From a phage: DNA of 64,000 bases. Location of the stretch: sequence record PX068456.1; one strand, written 5' to 3'. This document shows, one piece after another, positions 14,700 through 62,719 of this stretch (the first letter of the stretch is position 1; each line of letters opens with the position of its first letter). The position numbers were made by a program, and so were the translations under genes. The notes under the pieces are model-generated. The model worked only from the letters and a program-made list of their open reading frames with translations, was not told where the DNA came from and made no database searches.

Positions 14700-17279
14700 A
14701 TGGGAGCTTTTACTTTCGACATTGAAAGTAACAACTTGCTTAATGACGAAAGTGTAGATTACTTGGCAAGTCCATATCGTTTAAAAGATAGTTTTGCAAT
14801 GCACTGTATTGTGTGTGAAAGTCATGATACTGGAGAGATTATTGCTTTCCATGATGGTGATAAATATCTTTTCGATGGTCGTCCGTATATTGAGACTGAC
14901 GGAAAGTATGAATACCGACTGGAGGAATATGAGCATTTAGAATATACCCATTTCCCTCTTAAAGATTTTCCTGATTTTGTAAATGGAACAGGTAAATTTA
15001 AAGGTAATTCAAACTATAAAATTACCAAAGTAGTTGGACACAACATCATTAACTTCGACTTACTGGCAATTAAATTATTTTTTAAACTCAACTACAGTAT
15101 TAAGTACAATACTTGGGGTAATAGTAACATTGAAATTTGTGATACTATGATCTTAAGTAAGACACTAAACCCTGATCGCTTCGGTGGTCATAGTCTGGCA
15201 GAGTTATCTAAGAAAGCTGGAGGGGATGTTAAAATTGATTTTAGAAAAAACATCCCTGAAACTGAAAGATTTAGAACATTTGCAGCAGATATGCTGTATT
15301 ACTGTATTTACGATAACAAAGCTAACACCGCAGTGTTCCGTTATTTGATGGAAGAGTGGGGTGATTATAATAAGTGGTCTGAACCATTTAACTTAGAACA
15401 ACGTGTAGCTGATATTATTACACGTCAAGAGCACCGTGGCTTTGCTTTCAATATGAAACAAGCAGAAGATAATATTCGTGATCTGGATGCTCGAATGGAA
15501 GCATGTCGTTTAGAGGCAGAACCTGTACTACCTCCTAAACCTGCTACTAAAGGTTATTTGAAATCATTCATTCCACCTAAACTACAGTTTAAAAAGAATG
15601 GTGAACCTTCAAGTAACATGATAAAGTTTGCAGAGAAACATTCTGGTGAACTTGTACAAAAAGAAGATGGTTGGTGGTTATTTGCATTAGGTAAAGAGTT
15701 TAAACTACCTATTCCAGCAGAAGAACCTATTTGTGATCCTACAGTACCTGCTACTTTAGACGACACTACACATATTAAAAATTGGTTAGTTGGTTTAGGT
15801 TGGAGTCCATCTGAATATAAAGATAAAGATATCACTCTTAAATCTGGCACTAAGATTAAGAAAGATGAAGCACAAATGGAGAAAGCTATTCGTGACTATG
15901 TTGATCAAACATTAGCATCTAACTTCTGCCAGGATAGATGTGATCATCTGGAGTGCACACCAGAAACTTTGGAATGGAAACTAAGAGATCGTATTGCTAA
16001 AGCTAAAGGTCGTGGTGTTAAAGTGCTTACTAACCCTTCCTTTACAAAAGGGCAAGAGAAGGATATTTGTCCTAACTTGGAAGCACTAGGTGAAAAGTTT
16101 CCTTACGCTACGCAGATTGTGCAGTATCTTACGTATAAACATCGTAGAAACTCTATTCTAGGTGGTGGTGCTGATTGGGAAGAGGATGAAGAGGATTACG
16201 ATAAAGGTTATCTGGCGGCAGTAAGGGCTGATGGTCGTATACCAACTCCTGCTGCAACGTGTGATGCAGCTACGTCTCGTATGAAACATAGGTTAGTAGC
16301 AAATATTCCACGTGTAACATCTCTGTACGGATATGAAATGCGTAACTTATTTGGTGTAGAAGTTCCAAAATACTTCCAAATTGGTTATGACTTTGATTCT
16401 CTTGAGGCAAAGATAGAATCACACTACTGTTGGCGGTACGAGCAGGAACCACACGAATATTGTAATGCTCTATTGTTGGAAAAACCTAATGATGTTCATA
16501 CAATGATGGCTCGACGTATTTCTGACACTATTGGTCGTAAGTTTGAACGAAGCCCTGCTAAATCTGTTAAGTATGGTATTACTTATGGTGCTCAAGCTGC
16601 AAAAGTAGCAAAAACTATTGGTAGTGATATGTATACAGGACAGCTTGTATACGATGCTTTCTGGGAAGCTGCAAAACCTCTTGCACTTCTTAAAGAACGT
16701 CTGCATGATTTTTGGGTTAAAACAGGTAAGAAATACATTCTTGGTATTGATGGTAGGAAAGTACCTACACGATCTGCACACGCAATACTTAACTCTCTGT
16801 TCCAGAGTGGTGGTGTTATTTGTGCAAAAAGAGCAATGGTTATCTACGATGATCTTATCGAAGAAGAAGGATTAGCTGTTGACTTTTTTGTTGATGACTG
16901 GAAAAATAAGTCATTCGTTCAACAAATGATTGCATATCACGATGAAGCACAGCTTGAAGTAACTCGTGATCTCGTGCATTTTAAATGGTTCTCTAAAGAA
17001 TCTTTAGGTTGGACTCAAGTTGATGATCCAGAAGAACAAAAGAAAATTGATAAAGAATGTTTGGATAAAGTTAACGCCTGGAAAGAAGAGGAAGAGAAAC
17101 GTACTGGCAAGATTTGGGCTAACGTACATGAATCTCCGAAAGGTGGTTGGTTTACAGCCTATAGTCGTGCTGGAGAGTTAGCATCTATCGCTGTTAATAA
17201 AGCTGGTGAGTATTACAATCTTAATGTACCTCTCACTGCTGGTTACGATGTTGGTAACTCATGGGCCAGTTGTCACTGA
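14700..17279 (+). CDS. DNA polymerase, family A, with 3'-5' exonuclease domain
   Basis: 859 aa; N-terminal FDIESNNL exo motif; RKFERSPAKSVKYGITYGAQ (motif B-like); HDEAQLEV (motif C). Confidence 0.85.
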   Translation: MGAFTFDIESNNLLNDESVDYLASPYRLKDSFAMHCIVCESHDTGEIIAFHDGDKYLFDGRPYIETDGKYEYRLEEYEHLEYTHFPLKDFPDFVNGTGKFKGNSNYKITKVVGHNIINFDLLAIKLFFKLNYSIKYNTWGNSNIEICDTMILSKTLNPDRFGGHSLAELSKKAGGDVKIDFRKNIPETERFRTFAADMLYYCIYDNKANTAVFRYLMEEWGDYNKWSEPFNLEQRVADIITRQEHRGFAFNMKQAEDNIRDLDARMEACRLEAEPVLPPKPATKGYLKSFIPPKLQFKKNGEPSSNMIKFAEKHSGELVQKEDGWWLFALGKEFKLPIPAEEPICDPTVPATLDDTTHIKNWLVGLGWSPSEYKDKDITLKSGTKIKKDEAQMEKAIRDYVDQTLASNFCQDRCDHLECTPETLEWKLRDRIAKAKGRGVKVLTNPSFTKGQEKDICPNLEALGEKFPYATQIVQYLTYKHRRNSILGGGADWEEDEEDYDKGYLAAVRADGRIPTPAATCDAATSRMKHRLVANIPRVTSLYGYEMRNLFGVEVPKYFQIGYDFDSLEAKIESHYCWRYEQEPHEYCNALLLEKPNDVHTMMARRISDTIGRKFERSPAKSVKYGITYGAQAAKVAKTIGSDMYTGQLVYDAFWEAAKPLALLKERLHDFWVKTGKKYILGIDGRKVPTRSAHAILNSLFQSGGVICAKRAMVIYDDLIEEEGLAVDFFVDDWKNKSFVQQMIAYHDEAQLEVTRDLVHFKWFSKESLGWTQVDDPEEQKKIDKECLDKVNAWKEEEEKRTGKIWANVHESPKGGWFTAYSRAGELASIAVNKAGEYYNLNVPLTAGYDVGNSWASCH

Positions 17280-17416
17280 CATCCCTTTGATTTTAAAGGA
17301 GTTTTTATGTGGGACAATCTATTATTGCCAAGGTTGTTCCACACTTTTAAACCATTTCATAATTAGATGTTTGAACATCTAGAATAACGCAAAGACCATA
17401 AGAGATAGGAGAAAAT

Positions 17417-18010
17417 ATGAATATTGAAGATCAAAAAGTACGCGCTTTAGAAGTATTACGTATGTGCCAACTGGTAGATCCGTTTGCAATTGTAGCTGGC
17501 GGCGCTGTACGTGATTGGCGATTAGAAACACCTGCGCAAGATATTGACATTTACTTGCGTATGCCTAACCACAATACAACCGTACTGGTAGAGAAATTTT
17601 TGATGTTGGGTGTTGGTGCACGTAATGTTAAACAACTTACTAAGCAAACAGAACACACTTATGCCGAACTACCACATTTGAAATGGGTATTTGAAGCATA
17701 CTATAAAGATCTTAAGTTTAACTTTATGATCATGGAAGAGGGTGTACGCAGTGAAATCGTATGGAACTTTGACGTAGCTATTTGCCTGTGTTACTGGGAT
17801 GGTCAAAATTATGTATATCATCCAGACTTTGACTTTGCATTGAAGACTAATATTTGCACTATTAATCACCGATACACAGGTAAAGAAGCACACGTCCGTA
17901 AAATGGCAGAACGTTTCCCTATGTTCCGCTTTGTAAAAGACGTTTTCATCCCCAAAGAACCAGAAGTACGTACACTGGATTCGTTTAACAACGAAGAATT
18001 TAAGATTTAA
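17417..18010 (+). CDS. minimal nucleotidyltransferase, CCA-adding-enzyme/poly(A) polymerase head-domain-like
   Basis: 197 aa; AIVAGGAVRDWRL...DIDIY matches the GGxVRD...DxD signature of class II tRNA nucleotidyltransferases. Confidence 0.55.
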   Translation: MNIEDQKVRALEVLRMCQLVDPFAIVAGGAVRDWRLETPAQDIDIYLRMPNHNTTVLVEKFLMLGVGARNVKQLTKQTEHTYAELPHLKWVFEAYYKDLKFNFMIMEEGVRSEIVWNFDVAICLCYWDGQNYVYHPDFDFALKTNICTINHRYTGKEAHVRKMAERFPMFRFVKDVFIPKEPEVRTLDSFNNEEFKI

Positions 18011-18013
18011 GTG

Positions 18014-18043
18014 TTGACAAACCTTACAATTATGTGTTATTAT
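18014..18043 (+). promoter_or_regulatory. sigma70-like promoter candidate (TTGACA, ~18 nt spacer, TATTAT)
   Basis: read directly from sequence. Confidence 0.3.
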
Positions 18044-18053
18044 GAGGACTTGA

Positions 18054-18452
18054 ATGACAGACAATCGTTCTAAAATCTTAGTCGAGACGTTCTATAGTAG
18101 AGAAACTAATCGTCTTGAACTAACTAAAAAAGATGTTGAACCTCAAGATAATACCTTTTTTATTCAAATACTATGTCTCTTTGGTGGATACAACCGTTTA
18201 ACAGTGCGGGTAGAAGACAAAGAGATATCTGAAACCACTATCACAAAACGTGATCTAATGCTACTACAGGACACAATACGAGATGTTTTGGACAATCCTG
18301 GAAAAGCAAAAGTAATTAACCTTGGTGGAGAAAAGATACAAATTCTCCATTTTGAAAGTGGTGAAATAGGATTTGGTATTGGTCTTGGTAAATACCTGTT
18401 GGAAGAAACTGACGCTACTCTTTTACGAGAGTTTTGTGTTAAAGTAATGTAA
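18054..18452 (+). CDS. hypothetical protein (132 aa)
   Basis: ORF. Confidence 0.45.
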   Translation: MTDNRSKILVETFYSRETNRLELTKKDVEPQDNTFFIQILCLFGGYNRLTVRVEDKEISETTITKRDLMLLQDTIRDVLDNPGKAKVINLGGEKIQILHFESGEIGFGIGLGKYLLEETDATLLREFCVKVM

Positions 18453-18468
18453 TTATAGAGGAGAATTT

Positions 18469-19416
18469 ATGCCAGTAATTAATTCTGAAATCGACCGCCG
18501 TACTAAAAAAGAAGCATTCTGGGCTGAAGGTATTGTCGAATATGTCAAACTAGATAAGTTTGATGAAATGAAAGTCTCTTATATTAAGGTTGCAGGTCAG
18601 CCAGATAAGAAAATTGAATCAACTCACAAAGCATCTCTGCTTATTAAAGAGAAAGGTGCTGGTGCTGATGATAAAGGTGTTTGGGTTAGCCTAGGTGAAG
18701 TTAAACTGCACCCAGAACATGAAAATCTGCAAGTTAAAGATGGTGATAAGTGGGTTACTATCGAAAAAGGTGTAGAACTAACTATGGATGTTAAACCTTC
18801 TGAATGGAATGGCAAAACATACTACAACTCCTCTAAAGGTAAAATCACTATTCTTTCAACAGAAGGTGTTCAGCAAGCGCAATCCTCCTCAAAAGGTGGA
18901 AATAAGCCATCTAATAACGACGGTAGCAAGCCTAACTACAAAAAACGTGATACCGTAGGGATTGAAACAGGACACGCTGTAAACGGCGCTCTGGAGCTTC
19001 TACGTGCTGGTGTGAAAGGTGATGCTTTCGACTTGGCTGGTGTGGTACAATCTGCAACTGTTACTCTGAAAGCTGAAATTGCTAAAGATCGTGGCGTTGA
19101 TGTAACTGACTATGATCTTGGTGCTTCAGTTGGACACGCAATTCTTAACGCTTGTCGTGATCATACAGGTAAAACTGTAACGGCAGAAGAGATTATTGAA
19201 GCTGCTCGTGAAGTTCTTGCTTTGTCTGATAAAGTAGCTGCTGCTATCCGTGGAATGTCTACCCCAGTACAAGAAGTTAAGAAAGAAACTAAAAAAGTAG
19301 AGAAGAAAGAGCCAGCACCGAAAGAACCAGAACCTGTTGTTCAAGATTTCGATGATGATATCCCATTTGCTCCTATTGGTTTGCAATATGGTCGAAACTT
19401 CCTGCACTGTTTCTAA
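18469..19416 (+). CDS. single-stranded DNA-binding protein (putative)
   Basis: acidic C-terminal tail DFDDDIPF typical of SSB; position within the replication module. Confidence 0.55.
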   Translation: MPVINSEIDRRTKKEAFWAEGIVEYVKLDKFDEMKVSYIKVAGQPDKKIESTHKASLLIKEKGAGADDKGVWVSLGEVKLHPEHENLQVKDGDKWVTIEKGVELTMDVKPSEWNGKTYYNSSKGKITILSTEGVQQAQSSSKGGNKPSNNDGSKPNYKKRDTVGIETGHAVNGALELLRAGVKGDAFDLAGVVQSATVTLKAEIAKDRGVDVTDYDLGASVGHAILNACRDHTGKTVTAEEIIEAAREVLALSDKVAAAIRGMSTPVQEVKKETKKVEKKEPAPKEPEPVVQDFDDDIPFAPIGLQYGRNFLHCF

Positions 19417-60557: not shown

Positions 60558-60633
60558 TGGTCAGTGCGGCAGGACTCGAACCTGCGACCCGAAGCATCCA
60601 AAGCTCCCACGCTACCAACTGCGCTACGCACTG
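60558..60633 (-). tRNA. tRNA-Pro(UGG): tRNA-Pro (anticodon TGG)
   Basis: acceptor CAGTGCG/CGCACTG, D arm GCGC-AGTTGGTA-GCGT, anticodon loop TTTGGAT, T arm GCAGG-TTCGAGT-CCTGC. Confidence 0.7.
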
Positions 60634-60640
60634 TAAATAC

Positions 60641-60715
60641 TGGCTGGAGATCTAGGAATCGAACCTAGTCATCACGACTTCAAAGGCCGTTGCCTTCCCA
60701 CTAGGCTAATCTCCA
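60641..60715 (-). tRNA. tRNA-Gln(UUG): tRNA-Gln (anticodon TTG)
   Basis: acceptor TGGAGAT/ATCTCCA, anticodon stem ACGGC/GTCGT loop CTTTGAA, T arm CTAGG-TTCGATT-CCTAG. Confidence 0.7.
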
Positions 60716-60814
60716 ATAAAACTAAAAATCACTTAAAAAGAACCGCTAGAGTTTGAAGGAGAAAACCATGAGCGAAAAGAGAAATTTTCTCTAGCGATTC
60801 CATTTAAATAATCT

Positions 60815-60889
60815 TGGAGCGAGTAACAGGACTTGAACCTGCACCTGGAGGGTGGAAACCTCATATGCTACCATTAACACTATACCCGC
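60815..60889 (-). tRNA. tRNA-Gly(UCC): tRNA-Gly (anticodon TCC)
   Basis: acceptor GCGGGTA/TACTCGC, anticodon loop TTTCCAC, T arm GCAGG-TTCAAGT-CCTGT. Confidence 0.65.
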
Positions 60890-60944
60890 TTAACAATATT
60901 ACTCTAACATATTATTAGCCCCTTTGTCAAGAGGCTTTTGATAT

Positions 60945-61268
60945 TTATTTTAAAATAGTAGATGCACCACGTCTGTTTAGATATGCAATAGTAAAATCCA
61001 AATCACCTATTTCTTCAGGTTCCCACTGACCTTCTAAACCATAACAAGAACAATGATATGCGTGTACTTCATAAAACAAAGATGTTTTCATATCATAAAA
61101 ATAAACGTGAGATTCACCTTCATAATATGCACAATCATAAGTGGCAGAAAGAATTACAATGTTATCCTTATCTAACTCTACTTCATAATATCTTTCAACA
61201 TCTTCAATATCATCAAAACCATCGAAAACATTGATATTAAAATATTTCTCTAACTCTTTTTCTGTCAC
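60945..61268 (-). CDS. hypothetical protein embedded in the tRNA cluster
   Basis: 107-aa ORF between tRNA-Gly and tRNA-Thr. Confidence 0.4.
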   Translation of the reverse strand: MTEKELEKYFNINVFDGFDDIEDVERYYEVELDKDNIVILSATYDCAYYEGESHVYFYDMKTSLFYEVHAYHCSCYGLEGQWEPEEIGDLDFTIAYLNRRGASTILK

Positions 61269-61291
61269 ATATACTCCTTTAGAGTTAAAAT

Positions 61292-61366
61292 TGGTGCTCC
61301 CACAAGGACTCGAACCCTGATAAGTTGCTTACAAGGCAACCGTAATAGCCGTTATACGATAGGAGC
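61292..61366 (-). tRNA. tRNA-Thr(UGU): tRNA-Thr (anticodon TGT)
   Basis: acceptor GCTCCTA/TGGGAGC, anticodon stem GTTGC/GCAAC loop CTTGTAA, T arm CAGGG-TTCGAGT-CCTTG. Confidence 0.7.
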
Positions 61367-61445
61367 AAAATATTTGCTTGGTAGGATTTGATACCTACAA
61401 TTCTAGAAAATTCTAGAGGTTTCTATTAACTCTACAAGCACTATT

Positions 61446-61530
61446 TGGCGATGGATCAAGGATTTGAACCTTGCTAGAACTTTCGTTCACGGATTAACAG
61501 TCCGTCGCCCAACCACTAGGCCAATCCATC
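61446..61530 (-). tRNA. tRNA with Asn anticodon (GTT) but an unusually long, hairpin-forming variable region
   Basis: acceptor GATGGAT/ATCCATC perfect, anticodon arm ACGGA-CTGTTAA-TCCGT, 15-nt variable region GAACGAAAGTTCTAG, T arm CAAGG-TTCAAAT-CCTTG. Confidence 0.5.
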
Positions 61531-61537
61531 TTTAATT

Positions 61538-61623
61538 TGGTGCAGGTAGTTGGACTCGAACCAACGAAGCCCCGAAGGGCAGGAGATTTACAGTCTCCAG
61601 CAATTGCCGCTATGCGATACCTA
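61538..61623 (-). tRNA. tRNA-Tyr(GUA): tRNA-Tyr (anticodon GTA), type II
   Basis: acceptor GTAGGTA/TACCTGC, anticodon stem GGAGA/TCTCC loop CTGTAAA, long variable arm, T arm GTTGG-TTCGAGT-CCAAC. Confidence 0.7.
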
Positions 61624-61629
61624 CGTGTT

Positions 61630-61705
61630 TGGTACATCGTGAAGGATTCGAACCTTCGACCTTGGAGTTAAAAGCCCCTTGCTCTACCAACTAAGCTAAC
61701 GATGT
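61630..61705 (-). tRNA. tRNA-Lys(UUU): tRNA-Lys (anticodon TTT)
   Basis: acceptor ACATCGT/ACGATGT perfect, D arm GCTT-AGTTGGTA-GAGC, anticodon loop CTTTTAA, T arm GAAGG-TTCGAAT-CCTTC. Confidence 0.7.
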
Positions 61706-61838
61706 ATAAATTATCTTTAAAATAGCCAGTGTTTGCGGCACTTGACTATGAAGTATTAGGGTATCGGTAAGATGGTGGAGGCCATCTGCCGAAAGTTTAC
61801 TCTATTAAAGTAAGATTACAAGCTACATTAAAGATAAC

Positions 61839-61924
61839 TTGGCGGTAGATGTAGGACTTGAACCTACACGCCGTTTCCGACGACAGTTTAGCAAACTGTT
61901 GTGGCTACCATTTCACCAATCTAC
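61839..61924 (-). tRNA. tRNA-Ser(GCU): tRNA-Ser (anticodon GCT), type II
   Basis: acceptor GGTAGAT/ATCTACC perfect, anticodon stem ACAGT/ACTGT loop TTGCTAA, long variable arm, T arm GTAGG-TTCAAGT-CCTAC. Confidence 0.7.
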
Positions 61925-61933
61925 CGTTCTTAA

Positions 61934-62086
61934 TTATTCAAAACAACCGGAATCTTTTTGTTCTGCTTTTACCATACGAATATTTTTACCATCTTCAGAT
62001 TGTTGAAGATTAGAATACTCATAAACAACTTTATTATCTACAATCTTAACTCCGGTAACAACCTGTCCAATAGTTTTATAATTCAT
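61934..62086 (-). CDS. hypothetical small protein embedded in the tRNA cluster
   Basis: start moved to internal ATG with AGGAG RBS so that it does not overlap the tRNA-Ser(TGA) gene. Confidence 0.3.
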   Translation of the reverse strand: MNYKTIGQVVTGVKIVDNKVVYEYSNLQQSEDGKNIRMVKAEQKDSGCFE

Positions 62087-62104
62087 AAAGCTCCTAGTTG
62101 AATT

Positions 62105-62194
62105 TGGAGGAAGATAATGGAGTCGAACCATCACCGTATCGCTACAATGGGCCAGGGTTCAAACCTGGTTGCGCACCGCTGCGCCCTACCTTCC
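62105..62194 (-). tRNA. tRNA-Ser(UGA): tRNA-Ser (anticodon TGA), type II
   Basis: acceptor GGAAGGT/ATCTTCC, anticodon stem CCAGG/CCTGG loop TTTGAAC, long variable arm, T arm GATGG-TTCGACT-CCATT. Confidence 0.6.
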
Positions 62195-62257
62195 CGTTAT
62201 CATACTTTAAATCTAACATAAAACTATCTTGCTTGTCAAGTAGTTTTTAAAACTTTT

Positions 62258-62339
62258 TGGTCGGGGTGACAGGATTCGAACCTGCATACTCCAATTACTC
62301 GGTTAACGCCTGATTAGAAGTCAGGTGAGATACACCCCG
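62258..62339 (-). tRNA. atypical tRNA-like gene with Arg anticodon (TCT); no recognisable D arm, 23-nt region between anticodon and T arms
   Basis: acceptor CGGGGTG/CACCCCG perfect, anticodon arm CCTGA-CTTCTAA-TCAGG, T arm GCAGG-TTCGAAT-CCTGT. Confidence 0.45.
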
Positions 62340-62411
62340 TTTTCACAGTAACTATAACAAAAAACTAAGTGAATGTCAAGATATTTTTACTAAAATTATT
62401 ATTTAAATTGA

Positions 62412-62517
62412 AGCCTAGTTATGGAATCGAACCATATTTCGTATTTAGTTAGACAAAGCGGTCTAACATATTTTTCAGGCTTTGATGGCCTCGGAATTAC
62501 CAAATACCCTACTAGGC
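62412..62517 (-). ncRNA. tRNA-like element of ~106 nt (canonical T arm and matching acceptor halves, oversized body)
   Basis: T arm TATGG-TTCGATT-CCATA and perfect acceptor GCCTAGT/ACTAGGC about 100 nt apart; internal 7-bp hairpin GTTAGAC..GTCTAAC; no confident anticodon arm. Confidence 0.25.
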
Positions 62518-62519
62518 GT

Positions 62520-62605
62520 TGGTGCAAGTGGAGGGATTCGAACCCTCAATCATTTAAGCGTTGCGTTTTAAGCACAATGTGTATCACCAATTCCACCACA
62601 CTTGC
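62520..62605 (-). tRNA. tRNA-Leu(UAA): tRNA-Leu (anticodon TAA), type II
   Basis: acceptor GCAAGTG/CACTTGC perfect, anticodon stem TTGTG/CGCAA loop CTTAAAA, long variable arm, T arm GAGGG-TTCGAAT-CCCTC. Confidence 0.7.
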
Positions 62606-62719
62606 ATATAGGAGATGCATAGCACCTCCTTTTAAATGGTGGTTCCCCAGGGTTACAATCCCTGCCCTCGACACTTATGAGGTGTGCGCTCTCGTCAGTG
62701 AGCTATGGAACCTTGAATA

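Follow-up and report, generated by a model that had tools for sequence, protein, structure and literature searches.

What does a phage gain from a protein that carries the catalytic signature of the tRNA nucleotidyltransferases in less than half of their length? The question is raised by a gene at positions 17417-18010 (+ strand) of a 64,000-nucleotide stretch of phage DNA (sequence record PX068456.1; hereafter the window), which an original prediction had taken for a minimal CCA-adding-enzyme-like protein engaged in maintenance or repair of tRNA 3′-ends, possibly against host tRNA-targeting defenses, with an unrelated nucleotidyltransferase activity as the fallback. Our analysis leads elsewhere. 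We consider it somewhat more probable than an even chance that the product of the gene is a nucleotidyltransferase (NTase) of the Gad2-type family, standing alone and probably active, that the gene belongs to the replication operon, and that it is not tied to tRNAs.

The gene itself is not in doubt. Its open reading frame (ORF) starts with ATG, encodes 197 aa, and is preceded, 8 nt before the ATG, by a ribosome-binding site (AGGAG, 17404-17408, + strand), the same site that carries this annotation in phage phi92. The genome is that of a phi92-like Justusliebigvirus, an Escherichia coli myophage of the Stephanstirmvirinae. Over the 1.5 kb around the gene, about 56 phage records match it at 96-98% identity (96.9% nucleotide identity with phi92), with protein identity of 97.5-100% across 56 phi92-like phage records. 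Codon differences from phi92 comprise 13 synonymous and 3 nonsynonymous changes, and the gene is under purifying selection. Because it is conserved in 56 records, shows this synonymous excess, and belongs to a large family, we regard it as a real gene and not a chance ORF; the predicted 197-aa reading frame is thus borne out by the ORF, its ribosome-binding site, and its conservation. In phi92, the ORF is Phi92_gp158, labeled “nucleotidyltransferase” by RefSeq, and some GenBank records label its equivalents “putative tRNA nucleotidyl transferase/poly(A) polymerase.”

The signature-bearing part of the product reads ...VAGGAVRDWRLETPAQDIDIYL..., and the predicted signature is present, with GGAVRD at residues 28-33 and DIDIY at residues 42-46. 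A word-indexed protein search with the single window protein retrieved its own cluster only, and an exhaustive HMMER search was needed to reveal the family. At E ≤1e-3, this search gave 483 cluster representatives, almost all with lengths of 175-230 aa, so that we state the family size as at least 483 clusters at 50% identity. We take the family to be phage-specific; its carriers are coliphages, vibriophages such as ICP1, a cyanophage, and numerous uncultured phages. Among PHROG profiles, the window protein matched phrog_1614 (“nucleotidyltransferase”) with an E value of 3.1e-34, residues 7-193 falling on profile positions 20-206 of 268. Conservation was read from an alignment (A1) of 75 of the 483 representatives, with lengths of 174-228 aa and a median of 195. 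G28, G29, W34, D42, and D44 are invariant in all 75; conservation reaches 90% or more at Q6, A10, A27, A30, R32, D33, A40, Y82, and K162; and 74 of the 75 contain the pattern GG[AS].R[DN], with DxD in every one. Motif A (A27-G28-G29-A-V-R32-D33-W34 ... D42-I-D44-I-Y46; 17495-17554, + strand) combines the glycine turn of the Pol-beta/class II nucleotidyltransferase fold with its two metal-binding aspartates. The class II signature claimed in the original prediction is therefore there with its metal-binding residues intact.

A third metal-binding carboxylate may be supplied by E93 (17693-17695, + strand), a candidate suggested by Pol-beta fold topology; the residue sits on a beta strand of our structural model (88-96), and the position is acidic in 53 of the 75 family members. 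That variation, a truncated 137-aa form in ICP1, and a fixed position after the DNA polymerase in several phage groups would suit a catalytically dead protein that keeps the NTase fold as a structural or regulatory accessory of the replisome. We judge this very improbable, given that GG and DxD are invariant in 75/75, that R32, D33, and K162 are nearly so, and that the window protein has all three acidic residues. In our reading, this set of invariant and near-invariant residues is typical of an active site that works. The ICP1 form (GP223/ORF223; L004 4959-5372) is of the phrog_10174 type, spans only residues 3-126 of the window protein, and lies near a DNA ligase gene. At the other extreme, some family members (P0059, P0099, P0078) are fused to an N-terminal module for which no function was identified; the module starts M(K)xRVxSPxHSxxIQxALFxAGYxW, stands in one or two copies before the NTase domain, and could be a targeting domain.

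We then asked which NTases the protein resembles in structure. AlphaFold2, run on the 75-member alignment, returned a model with a predicted local distance difference test score (pLDDT) of 91.9 and a predicted template modeling score (pTM) of 0.86. When this model was compared with the PDB by Foldseek, the 44 best matches were all class II CCA-, CC-, or A-adding enzymes or E. coli poly(A) polymerase I (PAP I), and every other Pol-beta-fold enzyme came in at ≤8.0. On the model, the resemblance to class II enzymes is specific and goes beyond a generic Pol-beta likeness; similarity limited to a generic Pol-beta fold, which the original prediction had named as speaking against it, is not what the model shows. 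The fold is derived from the catalytic head of class II tRNA nucleotidyltransferases/poly(A) polymerases, and, in our own reading, the first neck helices of these enzymes are also retained. In sequence, the single window protein retrieved nothing relevant among PDB chain sequences, and the family profile matched class II enzymes at motif A only (E 0.013); similarity to the PDB CCA enzymes and to E. coli Cca is confined to ∼40 residues around motif A.

A class II head is not by itself a CCA-adding enzyme. Motif A of the class II CCA enzymes is present (GGAVRD at residues 28-33, DID at residues 42-44). Motif B (RRD), which serves ribose 2′-OH recognition and ribonucleotide selection, is absent from the window protein and found in 0 of the 75 family members, and motif D (EDxxR), the amino acid template for CTP and ATP, is likewise absent from the window protein and found in 4 of the 75, which is chance level. 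Class II CCA enzymes total ∼350-450 aa, and their body and tail domains bind the tRNA acceptor/T-arm; these tRNA-binding domains are absent here, and the predicted size relation holds (197 aa versus 412 aa for E. coli Cca). The Pfam PolyA_pol head model (PF01743) scored 20.1 bits, below its 23-bit gathering cutoff, over residues 26-89 only; the match ends at profile position 67 of 126, and motif B presumably lies within the unmatched second half of that model. The NCBIfam CCA equivalogs were far below their cutoffs (TIGR03671, 13.7 versus 281.3; NF009814, 13.8 versus 290), and hhalign of the family against E. coli Cca gave 25% probability over 43 columns only. Because motifs B and D and the body and tail are absent and the curated cutoffs are missed, we conclude that the protein is most probably not a CCA-adding enzyme and that the label “tRNA nucleotidyltransferase” is unsupported for these small phage genes.

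What occupies the places of the missing motifs can be suggested from sequence patterns and secondary structure, on which, and not on residue-level superposition, the following mapping rests. The stretch F118-D-V-A-I-C-L-C-Y-W-D128 (17768-17800, + strand), compared by eye with E. coli Cca, probably corresponds to the position of motif B (RRDFTINA) without its RRD, and it resembles the invariant FDFTVCMG..D of Gad2. The helix at 158-166 followed by F167-P168 (17888-17920, + strand) probably corresponds, judged by conservation and the model, to the neck helix in which class II enzymes have motif D, with H/Y159 and K162 in place of EDxxR; H or Y stands at position 159 in 74 of the 75 members, K at position 162 in 71, and F or Y at position 167 in all 75.

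The other leg of the tRNA reading was the proximity of the gene to tRNAs, the original prediction having placed it alongside a large cluster of 17-18. ARAGORN finds 16 tRNA genes, at 59836-62712 (− strand), that is, ∼42 kb from the gene, on the opposite strand, and beyond the whole structural module. All 16 encode their own 3′ CCA, so we rejected a need for de novo CCA addition to the phage tRNAs. Nor do tRNAs accompany the family elsewhere. Homologues in other tRNA-rich phages had been named as a check, and a clear homologue is carried by Vibrio phage 384E50-1 (47-kb Zobellviridae), which has 0 tRNA genes; 10 of the 11 related loci that were scanned have no tRNA within 5-8 kb, and the parts of ICP1 that were scanned (the first 50 kb and the 9.7-kb region of the gene) contain 0 tRNAs. 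With tRNAs near 1 of 11 related loci, physical or phyletic linkage of the family to tRNA genes was rejected. The sole such locus is metagenomic: its family member (P0095; L012 8001-8888) has 295 aa, including a C-terminal extension of ∼100 aa, and a cluster of 22 tRNAs stands 3-7 kb away on the other strand (L012 518-4850).

These observations bear directly on the idea of a minimal CCA-adding or tRNA 3′-end repair enzyme that acts, for example, after a tRNA-targeting defense. It can draw on the class II fold as the best structural match, on a motif A typical of class II, on the 16 tRNAs of the phage and the 22-tRNA cluster near P0095, and on a relative (in contig L009) that has genes for an Rnl1-type RNA ligase and a kinase/HD protein 4 kb away. 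Against it stand the absence of RRD (0/75), the chance-level EDxxR (4/75), the missing body and tail, the PF01743 score below 23 bits and equivalog scores of ∼14 against 281-290, the 16 of 16 tRNA genes that encode CCA 42 kb away on the other strand, the tRNA-less carrier, and a host that already has Cca. We regard this explanation as quite improbable, and in our preferred reading the gene has no functional tie to the tRNA cluster. The tRNA 3′-end maintenance of the original prediction therefore fails on missing motifs B and D, encoded CCA, distance, and a carrier without tRNAs, while its fallback, an unrelated nucleotidyltransferase activity, came nearer to the truth.

The tRNAs may have a role of their own. 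The 16 include Thr(UGU), Gly(UCC), Met(CAU), and Pro(UGG), which are four of the five species that the P2 OLD tRNase is reported to prefer (bioRxiv 10.64898/2026.07.10.737580), and this overlap fits phage tRNAs as decoys or replacements versus tRNA-cleaving defenses. Since P2 OLD cuts the anticodon arm and not the 3′ end (bioRxiv 10.64898/2026.07.10.737580), a link between OLD-family tRNases and CCA ends was rejected as giving no support for CCA repair.

The closest characterized relative by sequence, which the original prediction missed, is the anti-Gabija protein Gad2, which neutralizes the GajA/GajB (Gabija) defense and is the one family member with an established biological role. Gad2 is a 400-aa protein (ORF_159) of Bacillus phage SPbetaL7 with an AlphaFold-predicted nucleotidyltransferase domain; its deletion makes SPbetaL7 Gabija-sensitive, it is toxic on expression, and a Brevibacillus laterosporus homologue blocks Gabija (bioRxiv 10.1101/2023.05.01.538930). 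The cluster representative of the window protein (P0001, 99% identical) has a precomputed Pfam hit to PF26128 “Gad2” in the confident class (E ≤1e-5), and all 120 listed true Gad2 homologues carry precomputed PF26128 as well. Aligned by hhalign with the verified B. laterosporus Gad2, whose sequence we took from Supplementary Table 10 of bioRxiv 10.1101/2023.05.01.538930, the family gave 93% probability (E 3e-7, 114 columns), and with an alignment of 35 Gad2 sequences (A2), it gave 95.9% (E 5.5e-9, 113 columns); in the latter comparison, window residues 22-152 align with Gad2 residues 25-142. By hhalign, 12 Gad2-invariant residues are kept (A30, G31, G32, D45, D47, Y49, I102, F106, D107, C111, D116, and F128 in Gad2 numbering) and six are changed, and the putative motif B stretch takes part in the pairing, F118, D119, C123, and D128 of the window protein being paired with the Gad2 invariants F106, D107, C111, and D116.

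As judged from these alignments, the window protein is not a full Gad2 but appears to be a short relative of its catalytic domain that stands alone. It ends near the end of the NTase domain, whereas Gad2 homologues have 357-474 aa, with invariant positions to 349 and nearly invariant ones to 380. On the combined evidence of the ORF, its identity to phi92, phrog_1614, PF26128, and the AlphaFold2 model, we annotate 17417-18010 (+ strand) as the coding sequence of a stand-alone Gad2-type (PF26128/phrog_1614) nucleotidyltransferase. One longer family member, P0059 (400 aa), was considered as a true Gad2 and rejected: it has the family domain at its C terminus, a different, repeated N-terminal module, and no Bacillus phage hits.

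The setting of the gene is given by its neighbors. In the window, primase/helicase, gp160, DNA polymerase A, the NTase gene, gp157, gp156, and a DNA methyltransferase follow one another, all on the + strand. The gene comes directly after DNA polymerase A in phi92 and phAPEC8, in both of which the order polymerase-NTase-gp157-gp156 is kept. In Klebsiella phage fHe-Kpn01, Gp22, a protein of the same phrog_1614 (E 1.3e-39), is encoded by a gene that overlaps the end of the polymerase gene. A cyanophage has its family member downstream of a DNA polymerase and before ribonucleotide reductase (RNR), Zobellviridae phage 384E50-1 has its own inside a polymerase/helicase/flap endonuclease (FEN) block, and metagenomic loci offer as neighbors ThyX, RNR, dNMP kinase, dUTPase, dCMP deaminase, ligase, methylases, and a T7 gp5.9-like gene. 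At nine loci beyond phi92, phAPEC8, and fHe-Kpn01, the neighbors are replication or nucleotide-metabolism genes. The common setting is thus an early region for replication and nucleotide metabolism. In the metagenomic phage contig L009, an RNA-repair-like pair, consisting of a T4 Rnl1-type RNA ligase and a kinase/HD gene, precedes the family member by 3-5 kb, and a 5′-nucleotidase gene and a gene with a dGTP_diPhyd_N domain follow just downstream (L009 3189-5215, 8001-9767). In phage KP34, considered as a further carrier, no family member was seen in the first 25 kb; fHe-Kpn01 does carry one.

How might such an enzyme serve the phage? In the mechanism that we propose, two-metal chemistry would add nucleotides without a template to the free 3′-OH of a nucleic acid. 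The addition would lack CCA specificity and, with RRD gone, possibly ribose discrimination, and it would protect phage replication from a host nuclease defense of the Gabija/OLD type, or disarm that defense, instead of maturing or repairing tRNAs. We favor this mechanism as a whole, at the strength of a tentative possibility. A bolder version is doubtful: that the stand-alone ∼190-aa domain is the catalytic core of a very widespread phage counter-defense enzyme, a class II NTase without ribose and base selectivity that would tail DNA or RNA 3′-ends untemplated and so blind or disarm end-sensing OLD-family nucleases such as Gabija, with Gad2 as its Firmicutes-specific extended version. If it were true, the small “tRNA nucleotidyltransferase” genes of T7-like and phiKMV-like phages would be anti-defense genes and not tRNA enzymes.

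The fold and the genomic setting also bring in RNA. Characterized class II relatives all act on RNA 3′-ends, and a mini poly(A)-polymerase-like enzyme might put untemplated tails on host RNAs for host takeover, with the ensuing exonucleolytic decay shutting off the host and feeding ribonucleotides into the deoxynucleotide supply of the phage; the RNR, ThyX, dNMP kinase, dUTPase, and 5′-nucleotidase genes that adjoin relatives agree with this, and the toxicity of fHe-Kpn01 Gp22 and SPbetaL7 Gad2 fits promiscuous RNA modification. We think it unlikely, however, as RNA binding by PAP I depends on its body and C-terminal parts and the window protein has no RNA-binding C-terminal region, no family member has an experimental link to RNA, the anti-Gabija phenotype of Gad2 is left unexplained, and the adjacency to nucleotide-metabolism genes, which phage early regions typically contain in any case, is loose. 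That phenotype does lend something to an NTase directed at a protein or small molecule, nucleotidylylating a host defense or replication protein as MntA does HepT, or making a nucleotide product that hinders defenses such as GajA: Gad2 acts against a protein complex by a presumably enzymatic route, and nucleic-acid-binding domains are missing. We give this little chance, less than RNA tailing, because the structure clearly best matches the class II enzymes that extend RNA ends, not NTases acting on proteins or small molecules, and because the context offers no partner or target, gp157 and gp156 co-occurring with the gene only in Stephanstirmvirinae.

Our preferred reading, a stand-alone NTase of the Gad2-type family in the replication operon, has to be set against several findings that weigh against it. 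The PF26128 assignment rests on precomputed hits, and local hmmscan did not list it, the library probably lacking the model. Homology to Gad2 is remote (19-24% identity) and covers the N-terminal NTase domain only; the C-terminal ∼250 residues of Gad2, perhaps its Gabija-targeting part, are absent from the window protein. Six Gad2-invariant residues are changed (S36 to D, Q89 to N, H92 to I, H131 to A, N132 to L, and Q134 to T); at the Q89 position, where the window protein has N, most of the family has Q. The third carboxylate is not strictly conserved across the family, and no family member has an assigned substrate. Gad2 occupies a variable anti-defense locus of Firmicutes prophages, versus a replication operon here, in a myophage that is virulent on E. 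coli, and a fixed place in phi92 and phAPEC8 together with presence in every phi92-like record found would suit a housekeeping role in replication no less than counter-defense. Finally, the mechanism of Gad2 was still listed as not known in February 2026 (PMC12904381), and we found no literature on it.

The flanking genes deserve separate mention. Upstream, the family A DNA polymerase (14700-17279, + strand; phrog_17, phrog_16667, PF00476) is an intein-free allele of 859 aa without insertion. Its phi92 counterpart, gp159 (1104 aa; L001 4966-8280), is 99% identical to it and has in addition a 244-aa insertion between ...ESHYC and CWRYEQ..., with the corresponding junction of the window near 16428-16433; flanking cysteines make the insertion look like an intein, and other records have a split polymerase or an HNH insertion. 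Downstream, gp157 (18054-18452; phrog_16560) and gp156 (18469-19416; phrog_4477), which together span 18054-19416 (+ strand), are conserved neighbors, gp156 being called a single-stranded DNA-binding protein (SSB) in some records. They were not found next to family members outside Stephanstirmvirinae, and, as they are confined to that group, we rejected them as general partners. A near-consensus sigma-70-type promoter (TTGACA, an 18-nt spacer, TATTAT, and an extended TG; 11 of 12 matches) lies at 18014-18043 (+ strand), within the 43 bp that separate the stop codon of the NTase gene from the start of gp157, so gp157 and gp156 may have their own promoter for the host polymerase.

The label “tRNA nucleotidyltransferase/poly(A) polymerase” invites the wrong idea of tRNA service. 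Because the CCA motifs are absent, the family does not track tRNAs, and Gad2 is the nearest relative by sequence that has been characterized, the question shifts from tRNA biology to counter-defense or replication-linked nucleotidyl transfer, and a well-folding 197-aa version from a tractable E. coli phage is convenient for finding the substrate of the family. The finding is modest, since the gene had its annotation before, PHROGs and Pfam already list the family, and our analysis demonstrates no new mechanism. What is new is that the label is unsupported, that there is no tRNA association, and that Gad2 is the informative relative.

Four known systems help to place the protein. With the class II CCA enzymes and PAP I (PDB 3aql, 4wby, 3h37, 1miv), it has in common motif A (GGxVRD...DxD) and probably the third carboxylate, whereas motif B (RRD), motif D (EDxxR), and the body and tail are present there and absent here. 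PDB 2la3, a 191-aa Streptococcus pneumoniae protein (NP_344798.1) termed a “CCA-adding enzyme head domain,” is similar in size; it is bacterial, was deposited as “Uncharacterized protein,” has 9% identity to the window protein, and is not detected by the family profile.

A further group is that of small phage proteins. Structurally similar ones are common in T7-like and phiKMV-like phages, and such phages are as a rule without tRNA genes. The small NTases of the Autographiviridae (phrog_1614; Pectobacterium phages PP2 and DU_PP_II, Pseudomonas phage LKD16) have ∼165-215 aa and a similar predicted fold, and their function is not known (PMC7291057, PMC7693777). Gp22 of fHe-Kpn01, whose sequence aligns directly with our family profile at motif A only (76% probability, 28 columns), was reported to be toxic in E. 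coli (PMC7291057).

The comparison with Gad2 is the most informative. Gad2 has ∼390-430 aa with a conserved C-terminal part of ∼250 aa that the window protein lacks, and it reads GGTITS where the window family has GGA(P/V)RDW. Shared by the two are AGG, DxDxY, the Q/N on the following strand, the F-D-x-x-x-C...D pattern, and F138/F128. Both proteins are encoded by phages or prophages, both belong to the same Pfam family, and relatives of both are toxic on expression.

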